A DNA stretch of 64,000 bases from an uncultured bacterium (GCA_963826535.1 CAWGXL010000011.1:64809-128808); one strand, 5' to 3'; positions 1,349-25,212 are shown, counted from the stretch's first letter. The notes: a model not told the origin generated them from the sequence alone. Translations and numbers: made by a program.

Positions 1349-3169
1349 ATGGTTAAGATAGTTGGTATTGCTCAAAAAGATGACGAAGTTATTCTGTATT
1401 ATTCTTTTCAGAGGGGCGGGATAACATTCTTTAAAGAAGTTTCTAGTAAAGATGGATTTTCGTTTGAGGGAAAATCAAATTATATTATCGTAACCGATGA
1501 AAAGAATAAAGAAGATAAGAATTATAAATGGAAGAATATCAAATCCGTAAAGCAAAAAGAAAACTATTATGTTACTTATACGCTTGAGGGAAAAGCAAGT
1601 ACTGAAGCAAACGTGGCTGTTTCACACGACCTTATCCGCTTTACAAAGATAGGAAAAATATCTGCAATTAAAGGTGAATACGCGGTTGTACCACAAATGA
1701 AGTTTAGAAATAGGTTTGTCTGTTATTTTGGCGAGAAAACAATTCAATTAGCATATTCCGGAGACTTTAAAACATGGAAGCTACAAGAAAAAGTTCTTCT
1801 TGAACCTAGAAACGAATTTTTTGATGACACTAATTTAGAAGTCGGCGGTGTATTTACAGAGCAGAATCATATTCTGTTAATTTACTATGTAAAAAAACGG
1901 GATGGTAATTCTATTCGCTACGAAGTGGGAGCGGCTACTTTTAATAAAAAAAATCCAATGGAATTGTTAGATCGAGCTGACGAGCCTATTTGGCAGATCC
2001 CAGAGCAAATGCATACCAAAAAAATAGAGCCTCTTGGTTGTGTATTATTGAAAGATCAATTGATTTTATACTGGCTATTGGGTGAAGATAATATTTATGC
2101 TGTATCATGTCCGGTTCCATTTAAACAAGCAGGTTTAAAAAATAAAATTTTTGCGACACTTAATCGTTTTAAAAATAACCCCATTATCAAGCCGATTTCG
2201 CATCATCCCTGGGAATCCCGAGCTACTTTTAATACAGCAGCTATTTACGCAGACGGTAAAGTGCATTTTGTTTACCGGGCGCTGGGAGATAGCGACTTAT
2301 CGGTATTAGGCTATGCCAGCAGCAAGGACGGAGTGAATATTGATGAGCGGTCAGACTCGCCGATTTATATTCCCCGGGAACCTTTTGAAACTCCGGGACA
2401 GGGTGTACTGGCAAGTATTGCTGACCATTATGCTTGTGGAGGCGGTTATGGAGGCGTGGAGGATCCAAGAATTACGAAAGTTGATGATAAGTTTTATATG
2501 ACATATGTTGCCTTTGATGGCGCAAACCCTCCGCGGGTGGCGCTAACTTCAATAAAGGTAGATGATTTTCTAGGTAAAAAGTGGGATAAATGGGAACGGC
2601 CGAAGCTTATTTCCGCACCGGGCATGGTGAATAAAAACGCGGTTATTTTTCCTGAGAAAGTAAATGGGAAATATGTGGTATTTCATAGAGTATTTCCTAA
2701 TGTTCTAATTGACTTTGTTGATGATTTGAATTTTGATGATTATCTTAAAGGTCAGTATGTTATCACGCCTCGAAAAGGACATTGGGATAGTAAAAAAATC
2801 GGCGCGGGAGCACCCCCAATAAAAACAAAAGACGGATGGCTATTTATATATCAGGCAGTTGGCCAGCATGACTCAAGTAAATATAAAATAGGAGCTATGT
2901 TACTCGATTCCCAAGACCCGACGAAGGTTCTATATCGCTGTAATAAACCGCTTATTACGCCTGATATGGCCTATGAAAATGACGGGCATAAAGCCGGAGT
3001 TGTATATCCATGCGGAGCAGTTGTGAAGGACAATAATCTCATTGTCTATTATGGAGGAGCAGATACGGTTACATGTGCAGCTTCGGAAAATTTAGATAAA
3101 TTCTTGTATGAATTGAAACATAGTCATGAACCAAAACTCCATCGCGTAAGAAGTCAGTTATTTAATTAA
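1349..3169 (+). CDS. Two-domain glycoside hydrolase family 130 (DUF377) protein, beta-mannoside phosphorylase/hydrolase-like
   Basis: Two tandem GH130 modules, each with GxEDPRIT, YYGGAD and PPIKTKDGWL motifs. 606 aa. Confidence 0.7.
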   Translation: MVKIVGIAQKDDEVILYYSFQRGGITFFKEVSSKDGFSFEGKSNYIIVTDEKNKEDKNYKWKNIKSVKQKENYYVTYTLEGKASTEANVAVSHDLIRFTKIGKISAIKGEYAVVPQMKFRNRFVCYFGEKTIQLAYSGDFKTWKLQEKVLLEPRNEFFDDTNLEVGGVFTEQNHILLIYYVKKRDGNSIRYEVGAATFNKKNPMELLDRADEPIWQIPEQMHTKKIEPLGCVLLKDQLILYWLLGEDNIYAVSCPVPFKQAGLKNKIFATLNRFKNNPIIKPISHHPWESRATFNTAAIYADGKVHFVYRALGDSDLSVLGYASSKDGVNIDERSDSPIYIPREPFETPGQGVLASIADHYACGGGYGGVEDPRITKVDDKFYMTYVAFDGANPPRVALTSIKVDDFLGKKWDKWERPKLISAPGMVNKNAVIFPEKVNGKYVVFHRVFPNVLIDFVDDLNFDDYLKGQYVITPRKGHWDSKKIGAGAPPIKTKDGWLFIYQAVGQHDSSKYKIGAMLLDSQDPTKVLYRCNKPLITPDMAYENDGHKAGVVYPCGAVVKDNNLIVYYGGADTVTCAASENLDKFLYELKHSHEPKLHRVRSQLFN

Positions 3170-3172
3170 GCA

Positions 3173-5143: not shown

Positions 5144-6055
5144 ATGACATTTCTTGAAAAATATCAACTTCTGAAAAAATCTGTTCCCGTTCAGTCGGTG
5201 ATGATTAGAGAGGGTACAATTGAATGTGAGTATGTGGATTTACTTACTAACAGCAGAAATTGCAACTATTGCTTCGATTCATCTTATCTTATAGATAGTA
5301 TTTATACTTCTGTTGGAGCGTGGAGTAAGAAACTAGTAGATTGTACTTTTGTAACAGAATCGGAAAAGTGTTACAAATGTATTGATTCCAATAAATGTTA
5401 TAACTGTACCTATTTGATGGATTGCAATAGTTGTACAGATTGTCATTTCTCTGCCTTTTTAAACTCGTCCTCTGATTGCTTCGGCTGCGTTAGTCTGACT
5501 CATAAGAAACATTGTCTCTTTAATAAGCAATACACCAAAGAGGGGTATTTTAAAAAATTAAATGAGTTGAAAAAAGAAAGTCCGGAAAAGATATTTGCTC
5601 AAATGCTTGAGTTAAAAAAACAGATACCGCATCCAGCAAGTCAGCAAAAAAATAATGAGAATTGTCCTTATGGTGATTATATATATGATTCAAAAAATAG
5701 TTTCTGGTGTTTTAATAGCTACTCCGTTGAAAATTCTGGCTATACCTTTAGTAGTGTGAACGCAAAGAATTGCTGGGATATATGGTGGTCAGGAAGTGGG
5801 GATAAAAAACTTATTGCAGAGCGATGTTATGAATTAGTTGATTCAGGACGTTCTACTTATGATTGTGCCTTTTTAGCATATTGTTTATTTTGTATGAACT
5901 GCTACTACGGTGCATACCTCAAGAACTGTACAGACTGCTTCGGTTGCGTGGGGTTAACAAATAAAAATACTGCGTTTTAAATAACCAACTAACTAAAGTC
6001 CAGTACGAAAAAGCAGTAAGAGATTTTAAGAGAGAACTTGGGTGGAAATTTTAAG
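5144..6055 (+). pseudogene. Cysteine-rich MTFLEKY-family paralog, frameshifted near the 3' end
   Basis: 278-aa ORF ends at GLTNKNTAF*. The conserved family C-terminus (YCVLNNQLTKVQYEKAVRDFKRELGWKF) continues in the +1 frame to about 6055. This is consistent with a 1-nt deletion relative to paralogs (aataaaaagtactg). Confidence 0.6.
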
Positions 6056-6083: not shown

Positions 6084-6635
6084 CTAAATAGGATCGTCTT
6101 TTAATCTTAGGAGCCATCCGATAAAAGTTGACAATGGATGGAGAAAGAACCAAATAATAAAAAGTATTAGATATAACTCCATACTTAACCTTATATATAG
6201 AGCAGTAAAGAATATGCCTCCTAGGATATAATCAATTTGATCTGCAGGGAACCATGATTTACCGGAGGGAATTTTCAGTTGTCTTTTTAAAAAGCTTTTG
6301 AGAGCATCTCCGAATAACGCACCAAAAGAAGCCAGAAATCCAAAATAAATCGGATTTATAGTATTGTAATTAACAAAAGATACATCTCTGAAAAATTGAA
6401 AGTTATTATATAAAATCGTTTGTAAATATACTGTCACAATACCCGCCACAATTCCAGCTATAAGACCACGTATTGTTTTATGATCGCCCAATATTCTTCG
6501 TTGACGGAACTTCTTATAGAAATCCATTGGATAAGAAAGCTTTTCCAAAACGGGAATCTTTCTCGCAAGAATAGGGGCCAAGTTTCCGAGTCCGGCCGGA
6601 AGAAAGAACCATAGAACAGAGAGGATGATTTTCAT
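6084..6635 (-). CDS. CdsA/CarS-like CTP-transferase family integral membrane protein (CDP-alcohol/CDP-archaeol synthase-like)
   Basis: 183 aa with 5-6 TM helices. GDHKTIRG motif resembles the KTxEG/KTxRG signature of phosphatidate cytidylyltransferase and DUF46 enzymes. Confidence 0.4.
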   Translation of the reverse strand: MKIILSVLWFFLPAGLGNLAPILARKIPVLEKLSYPMDFYKKFRQRRILGDHKTIRGLIAGIVAGIVTVYLQTILYNNFQFFRDVSFVNYNTINPIYFGFLASFGALFGDALKSFLKRQLKIPSGKSWFPADQIDYILGGIFFTALYIRLSMELYLILFIIWFFLHPLSTFIGWLLRLKDDPI

Positions 6636-10974: not shown

Positions 10975-11883
10975 ATGACTTTTCTTGAAAAATATGAACT
11001 CCTTATAAAATCTATTCCGGTTCCAGCTGTGACGATTGGCCCAGATACCATTGATTGTGAATACGTTGATAATACCTATAGAAGTAAAAACTGCCATTAC
11101 TGTATCAACGGATCAGACCTCATAGGAGGTATATATACAAATTTGGGATTGGGGATTAAACTTGTAGATTGTGCTTCAGTGGTAGAGTCAGAAAAATGTT
11201 ATGAGTGTAATGATTGCAATAAGTGCCACAGCTGCACATACCTAATGGATTGTAACAGCTGTACGGATTGCCATTTTTCTGCTTTTTTAAATTCTTGTAC
11301 TGAATGCTTCGGTTGTGTAGCGTTAACTCATAAGAAGTATTGTATTTTCAATAAACAATACACAAAAGAAGAATATCTAAAAATGATAATAGAATTAAAA
11401 AAAGAAAAGCCGGAAAAAAATCTTGAAAAAATGGTTGAATTGAAACACAAGATACCGCATCCGGCAAGTCAACAAATAAATAACGAGAATTGTCCTTACG
11501 GGGACTATATATATAATTCTAATAATTGTTATTGGTGTTTTAATAGTTACTATTGTGAAAATTCCGGCTATAATTACGTGAGCGGTAGGGTGAATAACTG
11601 TTGGGATCTCTTTTTCTCAGGTGGAAACATAATTAAAAAAACTATTTCTGAGCGTTGTTATGAATTTGTGGATTCTGCTAATTGCTACGATTGTGCATTT
11701 TTAAACCTTTGTGAAAGTTGCACAAATTGCGACTATGGTACGTGGCTTTTAAACTGTTCCGATTGCTTTGGTTGTGTTGGGTTAAAAAATAAAAAGTACT
11801 GTGTTTTAAATAATCAGCTTACGAAAGTGCAATATGATAAAACTGTTAGAGAGATTAAGAATGAGCTTGGATGGAAATCTTAG
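10975..11883 (+). CDS. Cysteine-rich MTFLEKY-family protein (period-3 CxxC repeats), intact copy
   Basis: 302 aa. Shares the N-terminus MTFLEKYxLLxKSIPVPA, central CTDCHFSAFLNSCTxCFGCV...HKKYCIFNKQYTKEEY and C-terminus CVLNNQLTK..EIKNELGWK with five other copies in the window. A TGTTATAAT extended -10 sits at 10921. Confidence 0.7.
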   Translation: MTFLEKYELLIKSIPVPAVTIGPDTIDCEYVDNTYRSKNCHYCINGSDLIGGIYTNLGLGIKLVDCASVVESEKCYECNDCNKCHSCTYLMDCNSCTDCHFSAFLNSCTECFGCVALTHKKYCIFNKQYTKEEYLKMIIELKKEKPEKNLEKMVELKHKIPHPASQQINNENCPYGDYIYNSNNCYWCFNSYYCENSGYNYVSGRVNNCWDLFFSGGNIIKKTISERCYEFVDSANCYDCAFLNLCESCTNCDYGTWLLNCSDCFGCVGLKNKKYCVLNNQLTKVQYDKTVREIKNELGWKS

Positions 11884-11911: not shown

Positions 11912-14900
11912 TTAATTTACTTTCCCATCCGGCTGCATAGCAGTGCCCCCTCCGCCAAAATTTACAGTCCCATTTACTCCATTAGGTGCTTGATATGGAG
12001 GCTGAATACCAGGCTGGTTATTCATTGGCGGTGGTGGAGGTTGGTTTTGAGGTGTACCATTGGCTGGCTGTGGAACATTATTTTGTACAGGAGAGTAGTT
12101 GCCTTGAACCAGAGGCGGATTTTGCCCAGTACCAGACGGTTCAGGATTTTGCGCCGGTGGATTGTTGGGTTGTGAAGGAGGCTGACCTGACTGTCCGTCG
12201 GTAGGATTTTGCTGTCCCTGGCCAAACGGATAGTTCTGACTTGGGTCTGCGGGATTTGTCTGTGGGTTTACCGGCTGACCTACTTCTCCGGCAGGTGGGT
12301 TTTGCCCGGTACCAGGTGGCACCTGGTTATTTGTTTGCTGCGACGCATCCTGGGGTTGAGCTTGCAATTCAGCGGCGGAAGTATTGTTTGATACGTTGTC
12401 AATTGCATTTAAAATCATGATCGCTGTTTCGTCATTTTGTGTTTTTGCTTGATTGAGCTGCTCGATCAATTGCTGAATTTCTTCACTTGTTACCGCATCT
12501 GTCAAATTAAGCAAAGACGTTGCTAATTTATTACCTTTTTGGCTGGCTTCATCTACTTTGGTATGTAAATTCGTATACAACTCTTTTTCATCAGCATTTT
12601 CCGCGGTGATTGGATTGGCAATAAGAAGTAATGGCACTTTTATTTTCATTATTTCATTTTGCTTGATTGCATCCTGAATTGTGGCCAGTATCTCGGCAGC
12701 CAATGGATCGCCTTGATCTTTGGCCTGTTGTAGTTGGGTTTGTAATTGTTCTATGTCGTCATCAGATGTAATATCTGTAATATTTAAAATTTGTTCCGCG
12801 AGGGGATGATTCTGTTTCCCTGCTTCGCTCAGTTTGTCATAAAGATCTGAGAATTTCCTTTTATTTTCAGGTTCGGCTAAATAAAGCGGGTTGCCGAGTT
12901 GCTTCATGAACTTTTTAAATTTAGTTGTGGGATTGGCTTCTAATGCTTCTTCCGAAGCTTTGCTAATTTCACTATTCATGAGTGCGAGAATGTCGGTTGC
13001 CAGTTCGTTTTCAGTATCTTTCCCTTTGTTCAAATCTTCCATTATTTTTTCAATTGCCGATTGAGGCGAATCGGGTTTTAGTTGAAGAATTGCGGTGGCA
13101 ATCACATTGTTGTTCTGGCTTTCAACTACAACTTTATCATGCAGTTCTTTGAATTTATCGCGGGTAGCTACCGATGCTACTGTTTCCGGATTAACTATTG
13201 ATAAGAGAATTTTCTTTTCCCGCTCGATTGCTTTCAGCTGTTGGGCTATACCCGCTGCCAGGTCGAGTATTTCTTTTGCTAACTCGTCACCTTTCTCTTT
13301 CGCATCATTAAGTTTTTGTCTTATATCGCTAATCTCCTTGTCAGGCGTAGACGCGTTTACGGCAAGAATTGCGGCATAAACCGGATTTGCTCCAGTGCCT
13401 GCTGTGACTGTTTCTTTAGTTGCTTTATCTACTTCTGTGCCTGCTGCGGCAGCTTCTGTTTTTGCTTTATCTGCCTCTGTGGGCGCAGGAGTTACATCTG
13501 CGGTTGCTTTATCTATTCCAGTGCTTGCTGAGTTTGTTGCATTGCTTGCTGCGACAACTTTATCGTGTAATTTCTTGAATATTTCCAGGTCGAATCCAGC
13601 TGTTACATCTTCAGGCTTGGCAATTTTCTGTAAAATTACCTTGAATTCGCTATCGGTTAACAGCGTTACATCGCCTGCTTGTCCACCCTTGTTGAAAATG
13701 AATGCATTGATATTTTCATTATAGTCAATAACGATTGTATCCCCCGGCACGAATTTTTTGGAAATGATGGCGAGTGCGATCGGATTTTCTATGGTTGTTT
13801 GGATAAGACGGCGCAGGGGTCTGGCTCCATAGACAGGATCGTATCCATCTTTGGCTAGTTTAGCAATTGCTTTCTCAGTAATTTGTAAATGGAAGCCTTG
13901 CTCCTTTAATAGCCCGGCAGTCTTGGCGATACCAAGCCGCACTATGCCCGCCATGTGCTCAGGGCGAAGCGGCTTAAATATAACTACCTCATCGAAACGG
14001 TTGAGAAGCTCGGGACGTAAGAACTTAATCAGCTCATCTTTGACGATTTTTTGCAGTTCTGTAAATTGCTTGTTTAATTGTTCAGTTGTTAGTTTGACCT
14101 CTTTACCTTGTTTACTTAGGAATTGCTGGATGATAGCGCTCCCGATATTTGAGGTACATATAACTATAGTATTTTTAAAGGAAATAACATTTCCCTTGTT
14201 GTCTGTTAGTCTACCGTCTTCCAGAAGTTGTAATAGAATATTAAAAACGTCGGGATGAGCTTTTTCAATTTCATCAAACAAAACGATTGAGTATGGCTTC
14301 TTTCTAACCGCTTCTGTCAGTACGCCTCCTTCTTCATATCCAACATAGCCCGGAGGCGCGCCTATAAGCTTGGCAACTTCATGCTTTTCCATAAACTCGG
14401 ACATATCCAGACGAGCCATGGCATCATCGCGCCCGAATAATAATTCGGCTAAGGTTTTGGCAAGTTCAGTTTTTCCTACTCCAGTGGGACCAAGAAAGAC
14501 AAAAGAGGCGGTTGGTCTCTGGCCTGATGCGAGTCCAATTCTTCCACGTCGCACTGCTTCGGAAACCGCTACTACAGCTTCTTCTTGGTCGATAAGTCTC
14601 TGATGAATGCGTTCTTCGAGTTTTAGCAATTTTTCACTCTCGTCTTCAGTCAATTTGGTAATGGGAATTCCTGTCCAAGCGCTGACGACTTTCTCAATAT
14701 CGGCTTTTTTCACATCGCTGTCACCCCGTTTGCCTGTGTCTACCTGCAGTTTAACTTCAGCGCATCCCTCATCAAGCAAATCAATAGATTTATCAGGTAG
14801 AAAACGTTCTCCGATATATTTCTTGGCTAGTTTGATTGATTCTTTGAGCGCGTCATCCGGAATTTTAACACGATGGAATTTTTCATATTTTGTACGCAGC

Positions 14901-16276
14901 ACCTTCATCATTTCGAAGGCATTTTCATCACTTGGTTCTTCAGCGGTTACAGGTTGGAAACGGCGCTCAAATGCTTTATCTTTTTCAAAATGCTTGCGGT
15001 ATTCGGTTGTTGTGGTCGCGCCTATAATTTGCAACTGGCCGCGGGCCAGATATGGCTTTACGATATTGGCCGCGTTCATGCCCTCGCTTTCTCCCGCACC
15101 CATAAGAGAATGAATTTCATCTATAAACAGAATAATTGTTCCATTACTACCTAGGACTTCTGTAATTACCCCTTTGATTCTTTCTTCGAATTCGCCTCTA
15201 TGACTTGCACCAGCGACTAATGATGCAACATCCAGTTGAAAGATTCTTTTATTTAATATATCTTTGGGGACAGCATTAGCAACGATTTTTTGCGCTAACC
15301 CTTCGACTATTGCAGTCTTTCCCACACCTGTCTCGCCAATAATAATCGGATTGTTTTTGGTCCTGCGTAAAAGGATATGGAGGATGCGGTCAATTTCTTT
15401 TTCGCGCCCTGCGACAGGATCAAGTTTGCCTTCGCGGGCTTCAGCCGTTAAGTCAATGGCGTATTTTTCTAAAGTTGATTTCCTACCATAACCGCCGGTA
15501 GTTGATTTTGAAAGTTTATCTACAACTACTTCTTTTTTCAGACCAAGTGTTTGCAAAGTTTGTGCGGTTGAGTAATTAGGACCAAAAAGGACTACCAGAA
15601 TATCTTCCGGTGAAATGAAAGTTGATCCACGCATTTTCGCGTCCCGATAAGCTTGGTCAAAAACCTGCTGGGACACATTACTAAGTACCGGCTGACCTTT
15701 GTATGTTCCGACTCTTTCTTTGGCTTGAATTTCTTTGGAAAGCCTGCCTACATCAACCGCAAGTTCACCCAGTAATTTACTTATTTGTTGATCATATAAC
15801 AATCCAAATAATAACTGGTCAGGTTCAATAGATTGCTGATGGATTCTTCTAGATTCTTCTTGTGCGTGCGTTAATACCAGACTTGCTCTTGGATCCAGAT
15901 GTGAAAGGGCTGACGTATCTACTTTTGCAGAGGTGTTACCAAGGGCCGGATTTGTCTGTCCTTTTGGTAATCCGGCGCCAGGATGTCCTTCCGGAGGAGC
16001 TTGTCCTGCTTGTCCTGGGGGTGGATTCCCTGCACTAACAGGTGCTTGATTTTGTTGAGGACCGGCACCCGGTTGAGGAGGCGGTTGTTGTGCTGAATCT
16101 GGCGGTGGTGGCTGCTGATTATTTTGCTGAGGTTGATTTGACCCCTGTGGCGTATTTGCTTGGGCATCCTGGTTATTATATTGTTGATTTGGATCTTGAG
16201 GCGCCGATTGAACAGGTGGCGCCTGGGCTCCTTGTGCTTCCCCGTCTTTTTTTTGATTGAATAATTTTCCAAACAT
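11912..16276 (-). CDS. ClpA/ClpB-type double-AAA+ unfoldase with Pro/Gln-rich disordered tails and a C-terminal about 90-aa helical-repeat region
   Basis: Clp_N-like domain. D1 has Walker [16 protein letters not shown] and Walker [10 protein letters not shown]2 has [35 protein letters not shown] and GARPLRR sensor-2. The linker between D1 and D2 is too short for a ClpB M-domain. No [IVL]G[FL] ClpP-docking loop is seen after [11 protein letters not shown]. Residues about 900-1290 form repeats homologous to the neighbouring giant protein. N- and C-terminal roughly 125-160 aa are P/Q/N/G-rich. Confidence 0.75.
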
Positions 16277-16306
16277 ATTGGCTATATATTAATTAAATAC
16301 TATTAT

Positions 16307-19300
16307 TTACTTCTTTGCAATCTCTTCTTCTTCAGAAAGCGCTTTTGGTTCTTCTTCTTTTTTTATTCCCACTTCAACTTTTTCCTCTTTTTCATCTCCC
16401 AGCTTCAACACTGAAATTACTGTTTTTGCGGCTTTAAGTTTGACGTTGAGATAATCACTTATTTCCTGATAAGAGAATCCTCCCAAAAGCAGGAAAGGTA
16501 GAATGGTTCCCACTTTCTTGAGTCCATCATTTTTCTTATCTGTCTCAGGTGCGAGTAAAAGTGCGAGGGTTTCTTTTATTTCCTCAATCTCTTTCGTAAT
16601 CCATTCTATCCTTCCTTGTTTGTCGTCATTGAAGCCGAAAGGTACAGGAAGAGTCCGATAATTTTCTTCCCACATCTTTTCGATTTCCGTATAATCTTTT
16701 TGCGTAACGGATTGCAGTTTATTACTTTGGGGTACATCAGTTGCATTAATTTGAGAATGTGGCGAAACAGAATGTTTTGCTGCGGTTAAAATACTATCCG
16801 CAGTCTTGTCGCCTTTTTGACTTTTTTCGATAAGCTTCTGGCGTAGATTTTCTATTTTTTGCCGATCAGCCGGTATTTGGACATTTGTTGGGGTGGCGAG
16901 GTTTGCAAGTATTACATGCTCTTTGTGCATTTCTGTGATTTGAGATTTATCCCTAGCCAGAGACATGGCTTCATAACGGACTATATCTTTCATGGTCGGG
17001 AGCTTTAGTTCAACCATAGCCAGGATTTCATTGGAGACCTCGGGTGTGACAATGTTGGTGGCCGCAAATGAGGGGGTTGATATTTCAACTGAAGGCGCTT
17101 CTATATTGACTGCCATGGTTTGGGCTGCTTCCGCGTGTTTGGTTGCAACAGATACTTTGGTTTCTTCGTCAAGGGAAATGGATTTGAGAACATCTTTGGC
17201 TGCATCTTGTTTGGTTTGTAGATAAGAGACGATTTCGGATTGAGAGAAGCCTCCGACTAAAAGGAAGGGCAGAATGTTGGCTACTTCAGAGAGTCCCTGA
17301 TTTACTTTATCCTGATCAGCAGAGTTTAAGAGATTGGTTAAATTACCAATTTTCTCAATATCATCCTTAATCCATTCAGTTCTTGTTCCGGCCATGCCTT
17401 CAGGGACTTCCATATTATTGTAGTTTTCTGTCCACATTTTCTTGACATCTGCTAATTCTTCGGGGGTGACAGTTTGGATGCGGTTGGTTGAGGGAAGAGA
17501 TATTGCCTGTGGCAAAGCCCCTAAAACAGAAGTAGCTACAGATTCACCTTTAAGTTTTTCTTCTTTTAATTTATCACTTAATTTTTGGATATCTGCGCTG
17601 GTTGTTGATTTGTTCACGCTCAAGAGAGAAGTGGCAAGCTCATTGCCGCTTTGACTGGATTTGGCTATGGAATCATGTAATTTGGTCAGGCGCTCACGAT
17701 CAACCGGCGAGGAGATAGAGGCCGGATTGGCGATTTGTTGCAAAACTTGTCTAACTTTGTTGGTCTGTACAGATTTATTAACTGTTGACATAACAGAGGT
17801 AGCTAGAAGATTTGCGCCCTGCTGGCCTTTGTCAAGTTGTTCTCGGATCTTTTGCAGATCTGCATTTGAGGTACTATCGTTTACAGAAAGAATAGTACTG
17901 GCAAGTTCATTCTTCTTATCTTTTTCCTTAACTAGTATCTCATGTAACTTTGTGAATGCAACACGTTCCGATTCAGAAGTGACTGAAGCCGGATTGACGA
18001 TTTGCAGGAGAACGTTTTTGAAGTCTGATGATTGAGTTGCGCTAAAAGCCGCTTTTTGCATAGCAGAACTGGCTGCATTTAAAACTATATCCGCAGTTGC
18101 GTTGCCTTTTTGGCTTTCTTCGAGGAGTTTTTCCCGGAGCTTATCAAATCTAACTCTTTCTGTACTGACAGTAGCTGACGCAGGGTTGGCAATTCTTTCA
18201 AGTGTTTCGCGAACTTTTTGCACCTCTCCAAGTTGCGATTTGTCTCGGGACATTGACATGGTCTCAAAGCGGGCAATATCACGCATTCTGGGTAATTTCA
18301 ATTCAACCATAGCCAGGATTTCATTGGAGACCTCGGGTGTGACAATGTTGGTGGCCGCAAATGAGGGGGTTGATATTTCAACTGAAGGCGCTTCTATATT
18401 GACTGCCATGGTTTGGGCTGCTTCCGCGTGTTTGGTTGCAACAGATACTTTGGTTTCTTCGTCAAGGGAAATGGATTTGAGAACATCTTTGGCTGCATCT
18501 TGTTTGGTTTGTAGATAAGAGACGATTTCGGATTGAGAGAAGCCTCCGACTAAAAGGAAGGGCAGAATGTTGGCTACTTCAGAGAGTCCCTGATTTACTT
18601 TATCCTGATCAGCAGAGTTTAAGAGATTGGTTAAATTACCAATTTTCTCAATATCATCCTTAATCCATTCAGTTCTTGTTCCGGCCATGCCTTCAGGGAC
18701 TTCCATATTATTGTAGTTTTCTGTCCACATTTTCTTGACATCTGCTAATTCTTCGGGGGTGACAGTTTGGATGCGGTTTAAGGAAGGGACACTGATGCTT
18801 GCCTGCTGGGCGGCTGTTGCAAGTACATCTGCGGCAACCGATTCACCTTTAGTCTTGGCTTCATTTAATTTGTCACTTAATTTTTGGATATCTGCGCTAG
18901 TGGTTGATTTATTTACAGATAACAGCGAGGTCGCAAGTTCATTTCCCTTCTGACTTTCTTTTGTCAGGGCTTCATGCAGTTTAGTCATTTTTTCTTTATT
19001 AATAGCTGTAGCTGTGGCGGGGTTGGCGATTTGTTGGAGAACGTCTTTGACTTTGGTCATGTTTTGTGATTTTTGTAAACTGCTACTAATTGTTGTAAGT
19101 ACTTGTGAAGACATAGCAGAGTCTTTTGATTGCTGGAGTTTTTCGCTGATTTTTTCAAGCTCTGTTTGTGTTGTGATATCTTTTACTTGCAAGATTTGGC
19201 CTGCTAATTGGTTGTTATTCTCTTTACTTTCGTGTGCAAGCATGTCGTGGAGTTTGGTCATCTTTTCACGATCAGATGAATTGGTAGCTGAAGCCGGGTT

Positions 19301-21523
19301 GGCGATTTGCTGGAGTACGCTTTTAACTTTGGTCATGTTTTGTGCTTTCTGCAGGCTACCATTGATTGTAGAAAGCAACTGCGAGGACATGGTAGATTCT
19401 TTTGATTGCTGGAGTTTTTCGCTGATTTTTTCAAGTTCTGCTTGTGAAGTAGTATCTTTTACTTGCAATATAGAGGATGCAAGTTGATTATTATTCTCTT
19501 TACTTTCATGTGCAAGCATGTCGTGGAGTTTGGTCATCTTTTCACGATCAGATGAATTGGTAACTGAAGCCGGGTTGGCGATTTGCTGGAGTACGCTTTT
19601 AATTTGGGTAGCTCTGACTGCATTGCTTACCTGAGAGGCTGCTGAGTTGCCAACTGTGCTCTCTTTTACTAATTGATCCCTTATTTTGTCAAGTTCATTT
19701 GCTGTGGTTTTGTCGTTAACAGAGAGAATTGAGCTGGCTAATTGATTACTCTTTTCTTTACTTTCCTTCGAGAGCATGTCATGGAGTTGAGACATTCTCT
19801 CACGATCTACAACATTTGATGTTTGGGCCGGATTGGCAATTTGTTTTAGTATGTTTCTCAAATGTGAATCTGAGGCTTGAACGTTTCTTTGTGATTGATT
19901 ATTGGCGGCTGAATTTATAGCATTTAAGATAGTTGTCGCTACGAGATTTCCCTGTTGAGCCTCTCTGACTATTCTTTCATTCATATTTGCATATCTTTCA
20001 CGTTCTATCGTTGAGGTAACCGCGACCGGGTTACCAATTTTTTCAAGCATTTCACTCATCTTCATTACTTCTTGTCTTTGGCTTGCGTTATTGGATGAAA
20101 GCGCGGTGTCGTATCTGGCGATATCCCGCATTGTAGGAAGCGGGATACTTGCAAAACTTAAAACTTCGGCATTTATTTGAGCATGTGGAACAGAATATGT
20201 TAGAGCGGTACCAGCTCCCTGAGTTTCTCTAATTATTTCTTTGGCTGCGCCGCCAGGCCTCATAGTAGGAGTGAGTGCAATTGGAATATTCACCGACTTT
20301 TTTGTAAATGGTAAAGTCAAGGCAGTGCCTCCAGGCTGAGATCCGGGCGGATATCCTGTAGGTGAAGATGGCGGAACCATCTTATTGCCTAATAAAGTAA
20401 CAAGGTTTTTCATCATTGCGTTATCACCGGAAAAGTTAGCAGCGTAGTCTAAAAAGATTTGCAATAAAATCCAGGGAAGTAGAATAACGATCCATAACAT
20501 TATTAGCGCAACAACATAAAGCATGAAAGTCTCTGTAAGATTAACACTGTTGGTCGGAGTAACGAACTGCCTGGGTCCTCCAAGGAGAATATTTACAGCG
20601 GTGGGATATATAATTTTAGTCGGGTCTTGAATAGCGGGATTGACGAACTGTAAGGGAATTGCCTGTCTCCACATAAATACTAAACCCTGGAGGAAAATCG
20701 CGAAGAGCGGACCATATAATAGCCAGCGGAAGAATTCTCCAATCCAAATCTTGCCAGTATTGCGAACCGGATAAAATAAAAGCAGGAGTGGGAATACCGG
20801 GGATACTATTATAAAGAACCATAAAATTATTTTTCTAATCAATAATATGCCTACCATAACATAGTACGTAAGCGCGGTTAATTTAGTCAGTAATAATGAA
20901 ATAAAGGCTGATTCAGCGTTATAATCACCAAGCAGGCGTAATCCGACAAAGTCCTGGTAGTTCCAACCTACAAAGAGTAAGTCTTGATTGGATATGCAGT
21001 CAGGGGGACAATTAGTGGTGCCTGAACGTAAGAAGAATCCTTGTATTAGATCGGTGAATTGATATAGAAATTGCAGTATTGCGTATGACAAGGCAATTAA
21101 TATCAGTACAGCAGTAAATCTGGGAATAAAACGCATAATAGTGAGACTTCTTCCTCTAGAAATTATAATTATCATGGAGGTTGCTAAAATAACCAATATT
21201 AGAAGAGGCAAAACAATATAGAGGACTATTGTCCACCAAAATTGTGCCAATGGATTAGCCGCGTTGTCGCAATTACGATCGGCTACCTTGGTTACACAAA
21301 CCCATTGGTAATTTAGCAATGTCCAGTTTAGGACGTAACCTGATCGAGCAGCGTTTTTGCCAATAAAGGTTACTTCAGGGTCTACTACCCATAACCCTGC
21401 GGCGGGGGATGCTGTTTGTTGTTGGGCCGGGGCGGGAGCTTGTGCATTGGTAACTGCTACCGGATAAACCAAGGAAACAAAACAATATATTATTGCAAGA
21501 AAAATGGGCAGAAATTTTTTCAT
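16307..21523 (-). CDS. Giant (1738 aa) polytopic membrane protein with an array of about 92-aa helical repeats; N-terminal region VirB6/TrbL-like in topology
   Basis: Signal peptide, then at least 6 TM helices in the first roughly 400 aa. Then about 10 repeats of QIANPAxxTNSSDREKMTKLHDMLAHESKENNNQLASSIL...KISEKLQQSK. A large module (IQTVTPEELADVKKMW...LPFLLVGGFSQSEIVSYL) is present 3 times, two of them identical at nucleotide level. Confidence 0.7.
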   Translation of the reverse strand: MKKFLPIFLAIIYCFVSLVYPVAVTNAQAPAPAQQQTASPAAGLWVVDPEVTFIGKNAARSGYVLNWTLLNYQWVCVTKVADRNCDNAANPLAQFWWTIVLYIVLPLLILVILATSMIIIISRGRSLTIMRFIPRFTAVLILIALSYAILQFLYQFTDLIQGFFLRSGTTNCPPDCISNQDLLFVGWNYQDFVGLRLLGDYNAESAFISLLLTKLTALTYYVMVGILLIRKIILWFFIIVSPVFPLLLLFYPVRNTGKIWIGEFFRWLLYGPLFAIFLQGLVFMWRQAIPLQFVNPAIQDPTKIIYPTAVNILLGGPRQFVTPTNSVNLTETFMLYVVALIMLWIVILLPWILLQIFLDYAANFSGDNAMMKNLVTLLGNKMVPPSSPTGYPPGSQPGGTALTLPFTKKSVNIPIALTPTMRPGGAAKEIIRETQGAGTALTYSVPHAQINAEVLSFASIPLPTMRDIARYDTALSSNNASQRQEVMKMSEMLEKIGNPVAVTSTIERERYANMNERIVREAQQGNLVATTILNAINSAANNQSQRNVQASDSHLRNILKQIANPAQTSNVVDRERMSQLHDMLSKESKEKSNQLASSILSVNDKTTANELDKIRDQLVKESTVGNSAASQVSNAVRATQIKSVLQQIANPASVTNSSDREKMTKLHDMLAHESKENNNQLASSILQVKDTTSQAELEKISEKLQQSKESTMSSQLLSTINGSLQKAQNMTKVKSVLQQIANPASATNSSDREKMTKLHDMLAHESKENNNQLAGQILQVKDITTQTELEKISEKLQQSKDSAMSSQVLTTISSSLQKSQNMTKVKDVLQQIANPATATAINKEKMTKLHEALTKESQKGNELATSLLSVNKSTTSADIQKLSDKLNEAKTKGESVAADVLATAAQQASISVPSLNRIQTVTPEELADVKKMWTENYNNMEVPEGMAGTRTEWIKDDIEKIGNLTNLLNSADQDKVNQGLSEVANILPFLLVGGFSQSEIVSYLQTKQDAAKDVLKSISLDEETKVSVATKHAEAAQTMAVNIEAPSVEISTPSFAATNIVTPEVSNEILAMVELKLPRMRDIARFETMSMSRDKSQLGEVQKVRETLERIANPASATVSTERVRFDKLREKLLEESQKGNATADIVLNAASSAMQKAAFSATQSSDFKNVLLQIVNPASVTSESERVAFTKLHEILVKEKDKKNELASTILSVNDSTSNADLQKIREQLDKGQQGANLLATSVMSTVNKSVQTNKVRQVLQQIANPASISSPVDRERLTKLHDSIAKSSQSGNELATSLLSVNKSTTSADIQKLSDKLKEEKLKGESVATSVLGALPQAISLPSTNRIQTVTPEELADVKKMWTENYNNMEVPEGMAGTRTEWIKDDIEKIGNLTNLLNSADQDKVNQGLSEVANILPFLLVGGFSQSEIVSYLQTKQDAAKDVLKSISLDEETKVSVATKHAEAAQTMAVNIEAPSVEISTPSFAATNIVTPEVSNEILAMVELKLPTMKDIVRYEAMSLARDKSQITEMHKEHVILANLATPTNVQIPADRQKIENLRQKLIEKSQKGDKTADSILTAAKHSVSPHSQINATDVPQSNKLQSVTQKDYTEIEKMWEENYRTLPVPFGFNDDKQGRIEWITKEIEEIKETLALLLAPETDKKNDGLKKVGTILPFLLLGGFSYQEISDYLNVKLKAAKTVISVLKLGDEKEEKVEVGIKKEEEPKALSEEEEIAKK
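17009..17487. repeat. Perfect about 479-bp direct repeat inside the giant gene, copy 1
   Basis: Region 17009-17487 is identical to 18302-18780 (offset 1293 nt). This was checked line by line. Antisense ORFs 16992..17225 and 18102..18518 translate identically. Confidence 0.85.
18302..18780. repeat. Perfect about 479-bp direct repeat inside the giant gene, copy 2
   Basis: See copy 1. Encodes the duplicated module VTPEELADVKKMWTENYNNMEVPEGMAGTRTEW.... Confidence 0.85.
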
Positions 21524-21529
21524 GTTTTT

Positions 21530-21829
21530 TTACTTAGCAAAACCCGGAATGTTTAAAATGTCGACTGCGAGAAATTGGAAAAAAACAAATCCAAAAATTG
21601 CGAGCAATAAACCGGCGATCGCGCAGACTATATAGCTTTTTCCAACATTGAGCTGGTGTGGTTCTCCGCGGGAAGTTAAGATTGTATATCCGCCCCAAAT
21701 TATCATTATCAATGATAGACCGGCAACAAAACCTATTCCGTAACCGTAAAATTTTTGCACAAATCCGATTGGGTCATTTGGCCAGCAGCCAAAGTCTGTT
21801 TGGATTTCATTTAATGCGCAGGCAGCCAT
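21530..21829 (-). CDS. Small two-helix membrane protein, VirB2/TrbC- or VirB3-like (pilin-like)
   Basis: 99 aa with two hydrophobic helices (GFVAGLSLIMIIWGGY and SYIVCAIAGLLLAIFGFVFF) separated by a short polar loop. 6-nt gap to the giant gene. Confidence 0.4.
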   Translation of the reverse strand: MAACALNEIQTDFGCWPNDPIGFVQKFYGYGIGFVAGLSLIMIIWGGYTILTSRGEPHQLNVGKSYIVCAIAGLLLAIFGFVFFQFLAVDILNIPGFAK

Positions 21830-21927
21830 ATTTTAACAGTAACATAATTAAATTTTAAAAACAACTATGCATTTTAAAGATTGTAATATGTCTATACATT
21901 TTTGTTCAACTGTAAGTAAAAAAAGCA

Positions 21928-22305
21928 TTAAGAATGCACATTATGTGAAAGGAGCTTTTTCACATTATCCACTATATCCTCGGGCGTATTATTTGACTTG
22001 AGAAGAAAGGCTTTTGCCCCCCAATTTTTTAAGAGATCTTCGGCATTGGCGTAAATATTCGTTAATACAAGAATAGGAATTTTATTTAGTACAGGATCAT
22101 TCTTTGCAAGCTTGAGAACATCAAAACCACTTACTCTCGGCATTATGAGGTCAAGAAGGACGACATCAGGCTTAAAAGACTTCATCTTTTTAATTCCATC
22201 CTGACCATCAACTGCTGTTTGAACGTCAAATCCCTCATGCACAAATTTATCACGATACATCTCAAGTAGAATTACATCATCCTCTACCAATAAAATCTTA
22301 TTCAT
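21928..22305 (-). CDS. Stand-alone CheY-like receiver-domain response regulator
   Basis: 125 aa REC domain only (LVEDD, DLIMP phospho-acceptor region). Overlaps the upstream paralog by 8 nt. Confidence 0.7.
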   Translation of the reverse strand: MNKILLVEDDVILLEMYRDKFVHEGFDVQTAVDGQDGIKKMKSFKPDVVLLDLIMPRVSGFDVLKLAKNDPVLNKIPILVLTNIYANAEDLLKNWGAKAFLLKSNNTPEDIVDNVKKLLSHNVHS

Positions 22306-22690
22306 ATTTGTCCTTTTTAGAATTACTTAAAACTTCATTTGCTTTTTTTACCACATCTTCAGGTGTTGTATTGGCTTTGATCAAGCAATAAACCGGGCTA
22401 TACTCCATAATCGCTTCAAGTACTTTCCCATCCACATTTAGATTAGTTAATACCATAATCGGAACAGTTTCGCCCCAACTGTCAGCACGCAACTTCTTCA
22501 TCATTTCCATTCCGTTCAATTTCGGTAAAGCAAGATCCAGTAAGATAATATCCGGTTTACGATCCAGTGCCAGCATTAATCCCTTCTCACCGTCTTCCGC
22601 GTTAACAGGATTAAAGTTGCTAAATTGAAATTTATCCTTATACATGTCAGCCAGCACCTGGTCATCTTCTACTATTAATACACTCTTCAT
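22298..22690 (-). CDS. Stand-alone CheY-like receiver-domain response regulator (paralog)
   Basis: 130 aa REC domain only (IVEDD, DLALP). No output domain. Confidence 0.7.
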   Translation of the reverse strand: MKSVLIVEDDQVLADMYKDKFQFSNFNPVNAEDGEKGLMLALDRKPDIILLDLALPKLNGMEMMKKLRADSWGETVPIMVLTNLNVDGKVLEAIMEYSPVYCLIKANTTPEDVVKKANEVLSNSKKDKYE

Positions 22691-22770
22691 AAAAATAACA
22701 TTAAAATCTTACTCCATTTTATACCACTCCACTTTCAAAATGCAAAATGTATAATATTGTGAAGTCCCGC

Positions 22771-25212
22771 TTAGCGTGGCGATGTGGTATTTCCAGTTTC
22801 CTGAACAAATGCAATTTCGCGTCCATTTTCAAGCTCTGTTTTTGCTTTTTTAGCAGTAGGTGTTTCAGCTTTCGGAAGAATAAAAGTAAACGTGCTTCCG
22901 CGACCTGTACTCGATTTTTCTAGTCGCACATCTCCCCCCATCTTGCGGGCAAGTTCGCGTGAAATGTAAAGTCCCAGTCCGGAACCGGCAGGCCTAGTAG
23001 ATTTATATGTACTTAGTTGGGCAAATTTTCGGAATAATTTGCTTTGATCAGCCGGATCTATTCCTGTACCGGTATCGGTAAAAGCAATATACACAAAGTC
23101 ACGCACGCGGTAATATTTGATAGAAATCTTACCCTTATCGGTAAATTTCAATGCATTACCAAGAAGATTATTAAATATATGCCTTACCCACTCAATATCT
23201 GCCTGAACTAAGACTTCCTGCTTACTTTCAACATTTATAACTACCTCTTTTTGCTGCGCAATTGGTTGCAGCGATTTAGTGACATCGTCCAGCACCGGCC
23301 AAAGAGTGAAATTAGTCAACCGAAATTCAATTCTGCCCGTTTGAAGGCGGGAAACATTTAACAGATCATTTATTAAATGAATTTGACGCTTTGCAGAAAC
23401 AGATATATTCTCAAGCGGTTTCTTAAGCTTAGAATTTACAGGTCCATAATCACCATGAAGGATCATTGAAAGGAATCCGTTAATGGCAGTCATGGGAGTC
23501 CTTAGTTCATGTGATGCCATTGAGATAAATTCATCTTTCATTCGACTAACTTCTTTCTCTTTCGTAATATCATGGAAAACCTCTATTGCTCCAAAAAGTT
23601 TATCTTCGAGAGTAATTGGTGTAACAGTAAAGCGCACAGGGAGTTTTGTTTTATCTTTTTTTACATAGTAATTAGTTTTGGATGTTACAATTTTTTTACG
23701 CTGTGAAAGCACTTTGGTCATAGGCCGCGCGTCAAGGGGCAAAATTTTACCGGTCTCATCCTCCATGGGGATTGTATCTACAAGAAGTTTGCCAACCAGC
23801 TCTTTTTCTTTCCATCCAAGAGTTTCGCAGGCAACTTGGTTGACCATTGTAATCTTCCCGTAATTGTCTGTCGCAATAATTCCATCCCCGATACTTGCAA
23901 GCATTGCCTCATCAGTTGTTGTTTCCTGAAGCATTGTTTCTTCTAAAATCTTGCTTTCTGTTATATCATGAAAGTTAATCACAACCGCGTTGACATCCGG
24001 TTCAAAGAGCAAATTTGTGCCGGTTGCTTCGACCCAAATAGTCTTTTTATCTTTCCGGATACTTTGGTATTCCACCGTTACAACACCCCTTGGTTTAACA
24101 ACCAACTCAGCAAGTTTACCCATAGTCATCTTTCTATTTGCGGCAGCTACAAGATCAAATCCGTTTTTTCCAATTAATTCTTCCGGCGAATAGCCCAAAA
24201 TTCGCTTAACCGACGGGCTTGCAAAGCTTATTTTTGAAGTCGCGTCAATGAGAACAACGCCATCAGAACTGTTTTCAATAAGCGCTTGAAATCGTTGCTC
24301 ATGCGACACCAGAGCTTTTTCACTTTTGCGGATTGCGAGAACTGTTGCGGCAAATGTCAATCCTGTAAGTGAAAAAATACCCAAAAACAGCTGTAATAAG
24401 ATGAGTGATTGATTGATAGTTGGTGCATTTGAAAATGGTCCTTGTCCGCCCAACGTAGCAAATATAGCAATTCCCGCCATAAACAGAGTTGTAACCGTAG
24501 CTCCTTTTTGTCCAAACCAAAACGCAATCCAGACAGCAATCGGAATACTCAAATAAGGATAGGGGAGAATTCCGGTAAAGACAATTACAGCAATTATAAA
24601 AAGAATAATTAGCGTGAGAAAAAAATGAAGCGCTTTTTTAAAATCAAGACGTATCCTCAGAGCACGTCCCCAAACTAAAAGTAACGGAGCCACAACAAGT
24701 GCTCCTCCCATATCTCCGAGCCACCATGTTGTCCACACCGACCAAAATTCACTCCAGCTCGCGAGCCCGCCAATAATAAGCGTTACAACACCTATATCAG
24801 CGCTCACCATCGTACTTAGCATTGCTCCAAAAAAAGTAAACTTAAATATATTTGAAACACTATCAAAAGCATGGAGGCCATTGGCAAGTTTATTTACTAA
24901 ATATGCACCAACTACGCCTTCCAAGCTGTTTCCCAGCGCAATTCCAAGAGAAGTTGCTATAGTCCCAGCTGTAGTAAAATTGACAAAAAAAGCGCCCAGA
25001 AAAATTGCAGGGACAACCCGGTTTCCAAAAAGAAGAATTGATGCCAGTGCGATGCCTGTCGGCGCCCAAATTGCTGTCGCACTTGGATTTACAGAAGCAA
25101 GTGACAGGCCTAATTTGCCCGCGGCTATATATGCTAATGCAATAATGATATTAAGAAGGATTATCTTAATCAAAGTGAGTGGCCAAAATTTGTGATGGAT
25201 CTTTTCTATCAT
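22771..25212 (-). CDS. Sensor histidine kinase with N-terminal polytopic (MASE1-like) membrane domain, two PAS domains, HisKA and HATPase_c
   Basis: About 8 TM helices, then PAS-like segments (SDGVVLID..., GDGIIATDNYGKITMVNQ). H-box FISMASHELRTPM. G-boxes GTGIDPAD and GSGLGLYISRELA. Confidence 0.8.
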   Translation of the reverse strand: MIEKIHHKFWPLTLIKIILLNIIIALAYIAAGKLGLSLASVNPSATAIWAPTGIALASILLFGNRVVPAIFLGAFFVNFTTAGTIATSLGIALGNSLEGVVGAYLVNKLANGLHAFDSVSNIFKFTFFGAMLSTMVSADIGVVTLIIGGLASWSEFWSVWTTWWLGDMGGALVVAPLLLVWGRALRIRLDFKKALHFFLTLIILFIIAVIVFTGILPYPYLSIPIAVWIAFWFGQKGATVTTLFMAGIAIFATLGGQGPFSNAPTINQSLILLQLFLGIFSLTGLTFAATVLAIRKSEKALVSHEQRFQALIENSSDGVVLIDATSKISFASPSVKRILGYSPEELIGKNGFDLVAAANRKMTMGKLAELVVKPRGVVTVEYQSIRKDKKTIWVEATGTNLLFEPDVNAVVINFHDITESKILEETMLQETTTDEAMLASIGDGIIATDNYGKITMVNQVACETLGWKEKELVGKLLVDTIPMEDETGKILPLDARPMTKVLSQRKKIVTSKTNYYVKKDKTKLPVRFTVTPITLEDKLFGAIEVFHDITKEKEVSRMKDEFISMASHELRTPMTAINGFLSMILHGDYGPVNSKLKKPLENISVSAKRQIHLINDLLNVSRLQTGRIEFRLTNFTLWPVLDDVTKSLQPIAQQKEVVINVESKQEVLVQADIEWVRHIFNNLLGNALKFTDKGKISIKYYRVRDFVYIAFTDTGTGIDPADQSKLFRKFAQLSTYKSTRPAGSGLGLYISRELARKMGGDVRLEKSSTGRGSTFTFILPKAETPTAKKAKTELENGREIAFVQETGNTTSPR

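Follow-up and report, generated by a model that had tools for sequence, protein, structure and literature searches.

A conserved trio of pilin-like, VirB6-like and Clp-type genes in Levybacteria, and a repeat common to two of its products

The locus and its conserved three-gene core

The subject of this report is a minus-strand locus at positions 11912-25212 of a 64,000-nt stretch of DNA from an uncultured bacterium of tiny genome size, a member of the Levybacteria in the candidate phyla radiation (GCA_963826535.1, CAWGXL010000011.1:64809-128808; hereafter the window). Three adjacent genes at this locus encode a small pilin-like protein, a giant membrane protein whose N-terminal domain resembles VirB6/TrbL of type IV secretion systems (T4SSs), and an atypical Clp-type AAA+ ATPase that we call Clp1. 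The trio is conserved in related bacteria, and its two larger products share a repeat. With the three genes that lie upstream of it on the same strand, it makes up the following series of open reading frames (ORFs).

11912-16276, minus strand: Clp-type ATPase, Clp1 (ORF, 1454 aa)
16307-21523, minus strand: giant protein (ORF, 1738 aa)
21530-21829, minus strand: small VirB2/T4SS_pilin-like protein (ORF, 99 aa; PF18895 family, hydropathy)
21928-22305, minus strand: receiver (REC) protein (ORF, 125 aa; PF00072)
22298-22690, minus strand: second REC protein (ORF, 130 aa; PF00072)
22771-25212, minus strand: histidine kinase (HK) with domain order MASE1-PAS-PAS-HisKA-HATPase_c (ORF, 813 aa; Pfam)

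An earlier reading, made from the sequence alone, had described six consecutive minus-strand genes with tiny or overlapping gaps and proposed that they form one regulated unit. All six ORFs are indeed present, and the spacings it gave are correct: the two REC genes overlap by 8 nt, 6 nt separate the 99-aa gene from the giant gene, and 30 nt separate the giant gene from the Clp1 gene. Two further gaps can be added, of 98 nt between the 99-aa gene and the nearer REC gene and of 80 nt between HK and the other. Searches of Pfam and NCBIfam also bore out the assignment of a histidine kinase, a receiver-only pair and a double-ring Hsp100.

To see which of these genes belong together, we compared the window with related loci, labelled L001 onward. 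Species-representative genomes were scanned with an alignment of the giant protein's N-terminal domain, which yielded 80 loci, and 1262 neighbourhood proteins were clustered. Among record titles that name a lineage, Levybacteria predominates; many titles are unrelated or generic ("uncultured Gammaproteobacteria"). The titles of L007-L086 ("uncultured Gammaproteobacteria", "Acidiferrales", "Lysobacterales") look like placeholder or erroneous taxonomy, given the Levybacteria-type locus.

The pilin gene lies directly upstream of the VirB6-like gene, with a median gap of 3 nt (65 loci). Clp1 follows the VirB6-like gene at a distance of at most two genes, on the same strand, in 67 of the 72 loci with enough flanking sequence, and adjoins it directly in 61, where the median gap is 50 nt; the synteny exceptions are L002/L003, L004, L039, L041 and L087. 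The reverse comparison gave the same picture, since all three of three Clp1 homologues picked by Clp similarity alone are preceded by a pilin gene and a large VirB6-like gene. The typical order is hrcA - grpE - dnaK - (dnaJ) - pilin - VirB6-like - Clp1 - (secreted protease) - (dnaJ) - small transmembrane (TM) protein - Clp2, in which dnaJ stands either ahead of the pilin gene or after Clp1, so that the trio moves as a block. It is also kept where the upstream genes differ, as in the window, L007, L016, L088 and L089. A Daviesbacteria locus (L006) has another order, with Clp first, then an array of pilin genes and then the VirB6-like gene. The conserved unit is thus of three genes, pilin-like, VirB6-like and Clp1. 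It runs through the Levybacteria and is found in a relative from the Daviesbacteria as well; the two groups belong to the Microgenomatia (Patescibacteria).

The kinase and the receivers are not part of this unit. The HK has a MASE1 domain, two PAS domains, HisKA with the H-box SHELRTP, and HATPase_c; the REC proteins are receiver-only, 35% identical to each other, and both carry the DD...D52...T...K residues. No homologue of the HK, of MASE1 or of REC was found at E<=1e-5 in any of the 86 loci L001-L086. Most related loci have hrcA-grpE-dnaK-dnaJ upstream of the trio, and the closest, L007 (84% identity), likewise lacks HK/REC homologues and has genes of the opposite strand upstream of its pilin gene. 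A conserved unit of all six genes is therefore not supported, and HK-REC-REC is a genome-specific upstream neighbour rather than a conserved part of the module. That all six genes form a single operon in this genome, through which the MASE1 kinase and two CheY-like proteins would control a secretion-like module, also seems distinctly unlikely to us. The shared strand, the gaps of at most 98 nt and the fact that no terminator-like site was found in these gaps would fit such an operon. However, its putative regulators are missing from all 86 relatives, L007 has its opposite-strand genes ahead of the pilin gene, and the 98-nt gap before the pilin gene holds promoter-like hexamers, although the scan as a whole was not above chance and thus does not delimit operons (38 promoter-like sites vs 30.7±4.6 in shuffled sequence, and 18 terminator-like sites vs 14.0±3.5). 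Since HK-REC-REC occupies the position held in most relatives by a dnaK operon under HrcA/CIRCE control, it may nonetheless regulate the module here.

The pilin-like and VirB6-like proteins

The 99-aa protein matches the T4SS_pilin family PF18895 with 16.4 bits (E 0.0097), under the gathering score of 26.6, and the NCBIfam Mbov_0395 pilin-like model at E 3e-4, again under the cutoff of the model. Its relatives match better: 24 of 25 hit PF18895 at E<=0.1, with a best E of 2e-7. It is by this family-level kinship, its own score being under the curated threshold, that we class the protein as VirB2-type. Hydropathy predicts two hydrophobic segments, at residues ~27-53 and 60-97, with a short positive loop, TSRGEPHQLNVGKS, between them, and an N-terminal Cys pair (C4 and C15) is conserved in the family. 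No cleavable leader is evident in the protein, as just 3 residues of the ORF come ahead of the conserved Cys and the reading frame is closed by a stop 2 codons further upstream; some relatives carry leader-like N-terminal extensions. A sequence search of the PDB with the pilin profile returned membrane-helix noise only, mostly G-protein-coupled receptors. The sequence-only reading had called this a VirB2/VirB3-like two-helix protein, of which the VirB2 half stands; we found no support for a VirB3 identity and set it aside.

The giant protein comprises a polytopic N-terminal domain and a long tail.

20369-21523, minus strand: signal peptide (aa 1-29) and VirB6/TrbL-like polytopic domain, giant aa 1-385 (homologues, AlphaFold, Foldseek)
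16769-20062, minus strand: repeat tail, giant aa ~488-1585, nine copies of a ~92-aa repeat interspersed with D domains (regular expression, repeat hidden Markov model)
18344-18823, minus strand: D domain copy 1, giant aa ~901-1060 (tblastn to homologue C-termini)
17051-17506, minus strand: D domain copy 2, giant aa ~1340-1491 (sequence comparison)
16334-16735, minus strand: D domain copy 3, giant aa ~1597-1730

By itself the giant protein has no match in Pfam or NCBIfam (none at E<=1). Its N-terminal 385 residues retrieve 83 homologues in Microgenomates, several of which carry precomputed PF04610 or PF19590 assignments, and 10 of 26 family members scanned singly match PF04610 (TrbL/VirB6), the best at E 8e-7. 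An AlphaFold model of the N-terminal domain, with a predicted local distance difference test score (pLDDT) of 82 and a predicted template modelling score (pTM) of 0.76, contains five long helices. When this model was compared with the PDB using Foldseek, the top seven matches were all TrwI/VirB6 of plasmid R388, with probabilities up to 1.0, a TM-score of 0.51 for the best match and of up to 0.54 overall, and modest E values of 0.05-0.3; the search gave no other credible fold match for the domain. The VirB6/TrbL-like N-terminus that had been read from the sequence is upheld by these family and fold matches. The kinship of the small and the giant protein with T4SS components is thus supported at the level of families and folds, neither protein on its own scoring over a Pfam threshold.

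The tail had been described as about 1300 residues of helical repeats. Repeats there are, and the tail can now be resolved into nine copies of a ~92-aa helical repeat and three copies of a helical domain of ~150 aa, which we call D. The consensus of the repeat is "..LQQIANP..R..TKLHD...N.LA..IL..", and at the DNA level the tail shows a 276-nt tandem period and module duplications of 1293 nt. The repeat is present in all Levybacteria VirB6-like homologues, in 1-14 copies, and the D domain numbers from 1 to 3 across species. By tblastn, D is the conserved helical C-terminus of the VirB6-like family in nearly all loci, and D copy 3, the terminal module, corresponds to the single module of homologues of ~700-850 aa. 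AlphaFold predicts the terminal repeat+D module to be all-helical (pLDDT 89); no convincing structural relatives of this module were found. Copies 1 and 2 of D are 100% identical in protein sequence over 163 aa (giant aa 916-1078 vs 1347-1509) and differ by 6 silent changes in 489 nt of DNA, which suggests a recent duplication or conversion with no amino acid change.

On which side of the membrane is the tail? The signal peptide described earlier is confirmed; the count of "at least 6 TMs" depends on the method, with hydropathy giving six hydrophobic segments after the signal peptide and AlphaFold five helices, as residues 203-249 and 251-288 form a single long helical hairpin in the model. 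Across 26 family members the net charges of the loops alternate (-1.6, +3.4, -2.3, +4.2, -0.3, +3.3), and positions 230-231 and 254-266 are both net positive. This pattern fits an N-terminus outside, five TM helices and a C-terminus inside. Such an arrangement, N-outside, five-TM and C-inside, is the classical topology of VirB6. Conserved Cys pairs are found in the predicted outside loops, and the tail (~1350-1374 residues) contains no Cys at all. With fair confidence, then, the tail is predicted to be cytoplasmic.

It is also conceivable, but in our judgment quite improbable, that the tail is extracellular, a surface fibre or adhesin that a VirB6-like anchor holds out for contact between epibiont and host; the repeats on Clp1 would then have an unrelated cytoplasmic role, for example in self-association or regulation. 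Taken at face value, a signal peptide followed by six segments would set the C-terminus outside, and the swings in copy number between species, from 1 to 14 repeats and from 1 to 3 D domains, are characteristic of surface proteins. Anaplasma, moreover, has extended VirB6 paralogues whose C-termini are huge and rich in repeats (PMC7648143). Against a surface location stand the single AlphaFold hairpin, the net positive charge at both 230-231 and 254-266 (as expected of five TM helices and a C-terminus in the cytoplasm), and the contrast between a Cys-free tail and the conserved Cys pairs of the predicted outside loops and of the pilin N-terminus. In addition, the same repeat occurs on Clp1, a protein in which hydropathy reveals neither signal peptide nor TM segment.

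The Clp1 ATPase and the repeat it shares with the giant protein

Clp1 is 1454 aa long, compared with the usual ~850 aa, owing to two low-complexity tails and a repeat extension of ~440 aa.

15932-16276, minus strand: Q/P/G/A/N-rich low-complexity N-terminal tail, Clp aa 1-115 (composition, Q 21%, P 21%)
13697-15931, minus strand: class-I Hsp100 core, Clp aa 116-860 (Pfam, NCBIfam, PDB alignment, motif survey)
12377-13648, minus strand: repeat extension, Clp aa ~877-1300, 3-5 repeat copies (blastp, hidden Markov model)
11912-12286, minus strand: P/Q/N/G-rich C-terminal tail, Clp aa 1331-1454 (composition)

Pfam and NCBIfam recognize Clp_N, AAA, AAA_lid_9, AAA_2 and ClpB_D2-small domains in the core; the N-terminal low-complexity tail is found in relatives too. 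Clp1 aligns to residues 6-~407 of E. coli ClpB and resumes at 527-851, skipping ClpB ~410-526, and this jump in the alignment indicates that the M-domain is absent. The shorter M-domain of ClpC is also absent, as judged from the alignment offset relative to ClpC, and the spacing of the PDK...WTGIP motifs is 40 aa in the window Clp and 40-42 aa in nearly all Clp1 proteins scored. No ClpP-docking tripeptide of the form [ILVM]G[FL] is present in the loop of the second ring (D2), the sole matches to the motif, LGL and IGL, lying elsewhere in the protein. Alignment and motif survey thus agree with the earlier description of a Clp lacking both features, and lacking them it should be neither a disaggregase of the ClpB type nor a partner of the protease.

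Both rings retain complete Walker A and B motifs, and the D2 pore loop keeps its Tyr (GAPPGYVG). In the pore loop of the first ring (D1), His stands where Tyr is usual. Every Clp1 called in the related loci shows the same combination of no M-domain, no IGF-type loop, D1 His and intact Walker motifs, a few having Arg for His. Clp1 scores below the cutoffs of all three curated models compared, with 864 bits for TIGR03346 (ClpB; cutoff 1232), 694 bits for the NCBIfam ClpA model (below its equivalog cutoff) and 650 bits for TIGR03345 (TssH; cutoff 885). Source annotations label the homologues ClpC. "Atypical", as the unfoldase had been called, is an apt word.

The extension at the C-terminus of Clp1, overlooked in the earlier reading, proved to be related to the tail of the giant protein. 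The two align by blastp with 31% identity over 436 aa (E 1e-54), and a hidden Markov model of the repeat finds 5 matches in the extension. Applied to the 1262 neighbourhood proteins, the model matches solely VirB6-like and Clp1 proteins, and the Clp1 repeats are limited to the clade nearest the window, about 24 species with 2-5 copies each. A word-indexed search with the Clp repeat extension returned one match from a saturated candidate list and was replaced by an exhaustive profile search, run against 1.84 billion representative proteins, which gave 124 repeat matches; the 121 that we examined comprise 102 VirB6-like proteins, 2 Clp proteins and 17 short fragments, with no third repeat-bearing architecture among them.

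Of 78 Clp repeat units, 77 are most closely related to a Clp unit from another genome, with identities up to 76%, and each of the window's three Clp units is closest to the unit at the corresponding position. This pattern suggests one ancestral acquisition that was then maintained. It does not agree with continuing gene conversion between the giant and Clp genes as the source of the repeats, which we rejected, and strict co-expansion of the repeats in the two proteins was also discarded because several species have 6-14 tail repeats and zero Clp repeats. By these comparisons the repeat is shown to be exclusive to two types of protein and, as far as similarity between units can tell, vertically inherited. 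The connection between the giant protein and the AAA+ ATPase that had been proposed earlier thus has strong support, from the 67 of 72 loci, from the reverse comparison (3 of 3) and from a repeat exclusive to both.

Several other features of these loci deserve mention. Many Levybacteria have a second Clp (Clp2) 3-6 kb downstream of Clp1, which is absent from the window. Clp2 proteins are ~800 aa long and 35-39% identical to Clp1, with N-terminal TM segments in place of Clp_N, a degenerate D1 Walker A motif (GxxGxGKE) and an intact D2; a conserved membrane protein of 108-125 aa precedes them. Secreted S8 subtilase or SdrD_B-like proteins are often encoded between Clp1 and Clp2 and have in common the C-terminal Cys motif "C..DP.C.SGQKNLQ.C.L.C". 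In the nanopore-derived locus L001, the VirB6-like and Clp genes are each present as two overlapping ORFs, with the break exactly at the start of the tail; these splits are probably assembly frameshifts rather than real. Examples of these features are as follows.

L008 17948-20741; L005 9344-12087; L090 11952-14321; L091 11805-14498: Clp2
L042 14984-16777; L063 16210-18093; L040 15529-17811: secreted proteins
L001 11109-13865 and 16812-18224: split-gene ORFs

Possible roles of the trio and its relation to known systems

How might the three proteins work together? We favor, at about even chances, a VirB2/VirB6 membrane platform that has a probably cytoplasmic tail and a dedicated unfoldase as its partner. 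The 99-aa VirB2-type protein and the VirB6/TrbL-type N-domain of the giant protein would form a T4SS-derived membrane assembly of pilin and platform, from which the long, Cys-free helical tail would most probably extend into the cytoplasm. Clp1 would be a stand-alone threading motor dedicated to this assembly, with one of three tasks: to extract or unfold the pilin, to unfold a cargo, or to take the platform apart and recycle it. Within the clade of the window, Clp1 may also be tethered or targeted through the 3-5 C-terminal copies of the tail's own repeat. That the tail is cytoplasmic, that Clp1 touches it and what Clp1 acts on are inferred.

A more specific and unlikely version, in our estimate, is that the Clp1 hexamer docks on the cytoplasmic tail of the VirB6-like protein and threads pilin or cargo into or out of the membrane assembly, the docking in the clade of the window occurring through like-with-like contacts between repeats. 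If this were true, bacteria would have in the trio their own counterpart of the HSP101-EXP2 (PTEX) arrangement or of the ClpV principle, and here an Hsp100 would have taken on the usual work of VirB4 or VirD4.

Several observations weigh against a dedicated unfoldase on a VirB2/VirB6 platform. Hydropathy alone allows six TM helices, a number that would make the tail extracellular. The repeat is missing from most Clp1 proteins of Levybacteria, and some tails have up to 14 repeats with none in Clp. The trio lies downstream of a CIRCE-controlled hrcA-grpE-dnaK operon in most Levybacteria, and in ~44 loci dnaJ or dnaK is the gene that precedes the pilin gene, on the same strand and at a median distance of 58 nt; Clp1 could thus simply be the heat-shock Hsp100 of the lineage. 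Nearly all loci come from one class, so the synteny could in part reflect inherited gene order rather than selection. Finally, VirB4 is reported from ~80% of Patescibacteria assemblies and lies near dnaA in Microgenomatia, among other classes (PMC12102498); given that VirB4 is so widespread, the pilin/VirB6 pair may work with a canonical ATPase encoded elsewhere. The absence of VirB4 and VirD4 from the window, pointed out in the sequence-only reading, holds for the larger ORFs that were scanned outside the ribosomal operon, and no VirB4/VirD4-type match was found among the called genes of the related loci.

The heat-shock context leads to a different account, which we regard as less likely: Clp1 may be a general stress Hsp100 of Microgenomatia that ends a heat-shock supra-operon (hrcA-grpE-dnaK-dnaJ ... 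clp), the pilin/VirB6-like pair being an inserted passenger and the shared repeat a by-product of recombination between adjacent genes. The typical gene order, running from hrcA through the trio to Clp2, fits this account, as do the short distances that separate the pilin gene from dnaJ or dnaK and the ClpC labels of the source annotations. A search for CIRCE-like operators with at most 3 mismatches to TTAGCACTC-N9-GAGTGCTAA located one ahead of hrcA in 33 loci and, in 7 others, just within the start called for hrcA; the pilin, VirB6-like and Clp genes of relatives are in no case preceded by one. The loss of the M-domain in every Clp1 examined, not confined to the repeat-bearing clade, fits it too.

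Other findings speak against a general Hsp100. The trio is intact where there is no dnaK operon upstream (the window, L007, L016, L088 and L089), the window has no CIRCE operator, and dnaJ may lie on either side of the trio. The M-domain is the element that ClpB and Hsp104 use to cooperate with DnaK, and Clp1, lacking it, lacks ClpB's means of doing so. The Clp repeat units, for their part, are conserved by position across species and have not been homogenized with those of the neighboring gene, which argues for selection rather than recombination between neighbors.

As for the window itself, it has neither a CIRCE operator nor a dnaK operon. Genes for MetRS, TatD and a GT2-like protein (50452-54253, plus strand), which are the usual flanks of the hrcA-dnaK cluster in relatives, lie ~25 kb from the trio, and this distance suggests that a rearrangement parted the trio from the heat-shock operon. 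EF-Tu and a ribosomal-protein operon flank the six-gene block divergently. No tRNA genes were found in the window, and we rejected a mobile element, for which tRNA or integrase evidence was sought: vertical conservation speaks against a recent island. Six paralogous Cys-rich proteins of ~260-302 aa, 56-83% identical, with CxxC-type motifs and no Pfam match, are encoded across the window, one of them convergent to the Clp gene and directly downstream of it. The neighboring features are listed below.

1349-5107, plus strand: two tandem GH130 mannooligosaccharide-phosphorylase-like genes
6084-6635, minus strand: CarS-like protein (CDP-archaeol synthase family)
5144-5980, plus strand: Cys-rich paralogue (paralogy, as for those that follow)
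10975-11883, plus strand: Cys-rich paralogue
46351-47256, minus strand: Cys-rich paralogue
47289-48197, minus strand: Cys-rich paralogue
48346-49128, minus strand: Cys-rich paralogue
49291-50199, minus strand: Cys-rich paralogue

Among known systems, those nearest to the membrane components are the T4SSs of Patescibacteria, which have a VirB4 clade nested in MPF_FATA, arrays of VirB2-like PF18895 pilins, VirB6 and VirB3/PrgI (PMC12102498). A 2025 survey found the VirB2-like arrays to be abundant in Microgenomatia and VirB6 to be "scarce", which its authors put down to divergence, and it mentions neither Clp nor AAA+ proteins (PMC12102498). As in those systems (PMC12102498), a chromosomal gene for a VirB2-like pilin lies beside one for a VirB6-like polytopic protein, and there is no relaxase. 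Unlike the systems of the survey, the VirB6-like family described here is too divergent for single-sequence Pfam searches, is not encoded beside virB4, and is coupled to an Hsp100.

In R388, the first TM helix of VirB6 serves to recruit VirB2, and the pilus grows on a base formed by VirB6 (PMC9259494). The N-domain of the giant protein resembles the R388 TrwI/VirB6 pentamer (PDB 7o3v, 8rt9), the sole consistent fold match, in being a long hydrophobic helix bundle encoded with a two-helix pilin. However, identity is 13-17%, the TM-score is ~0.5, VirB5, VirB8 and VirB4 neighbors are missing from the window, the envelope of the organism has a single membrane (PMC12102498), and a long tail is appended to the window protein. 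In this last respect the extended VirB6 paralogues of Rickettsiales, such as VirB6-4 of Anaplasma phagocytophilum with up to 4,322 aa (PMC7648143), are closer. They too have a membrane domain followed by a very long, repeat-bearing C-terminal extension of a size that varies between strains or species, but the repeats and the lineages are unrelated, the Rickettsiales proteins belong to a full rvh T4SS, and no Hsp100 shares their repeat.

The Clp1 domain order, N-D1-D2, is that of ClpA, ClpB and ClpC, from which it departs in having His for Tyr in D1, ~600 extra residues and scores below all equivalog cutoffs; it lacks the M-domain, unlike ClpB and ClpC, and the ClpP loop, unlike ClpA and ClpC. 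A precedent for an Hsp100 that serves one machine is ClpV/TssH, which is dedicated to recycling a component of the type VI secretion system (T6SS). Like ClpV, Clp1 is a class-I double-ring Hsp100 that is encoded within a secretion-related cluster and is uncoupled from ClpP. Unlike ClpV, it is nearer in sequence to ClpB and ClpC, its repeat extension and low-complexity tails have no ClpV counterpart, and neither the window nor the related loci showed any T6SS genes. The pairing of a ClpB-type unfoldase with a membrane channel may also recall, as a concept, PTEX of Plasmodium, in which HSP101 sits on the EXP2 pore (PDB 6e10, 6e11), and HSP101 is among the PDB chains related in sequence to Clp1. 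PTEX belongs to a eukaryote, has an unrelated pore protein and includes an HSP101 that keeps its M-domain, so the likeness would be a functional analogy only.

In the literature that we searched, we found no report of the coupling of the trio, of family-wide loss of the M-domain together with a D1 His, or of an exclusive repeat of this kind. This points to components of known kinds, derived from T4SSs and from Hsp100 proteins, whose coupling and shared repeat appear to be previously undescribed.

Patescibacteria depend on host cells. In the single system tested, their T4SS-like genes were reported to be essential for epibiotic growth (PMC12102498). For Microgenomatia, where the survey rated VirB6 as "scarce or absent", the locus described here identifies the missing family, a highly divergent VirB6-like one that is nearly always encoded with an M-domain-less, ClpP-independent Hsp100, usually in a dnaK heat-shock cluster. 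Should the coupling prove physical, the trio would represent a novel means of powering or recycling an envelope machine of T4SS origin, and Clp1 a rare instance among bacteria of an Hsp100 dedicated to a membrane complex; testable targets would then be available in the repeat, the D domain and the His of the D1 pore loop.

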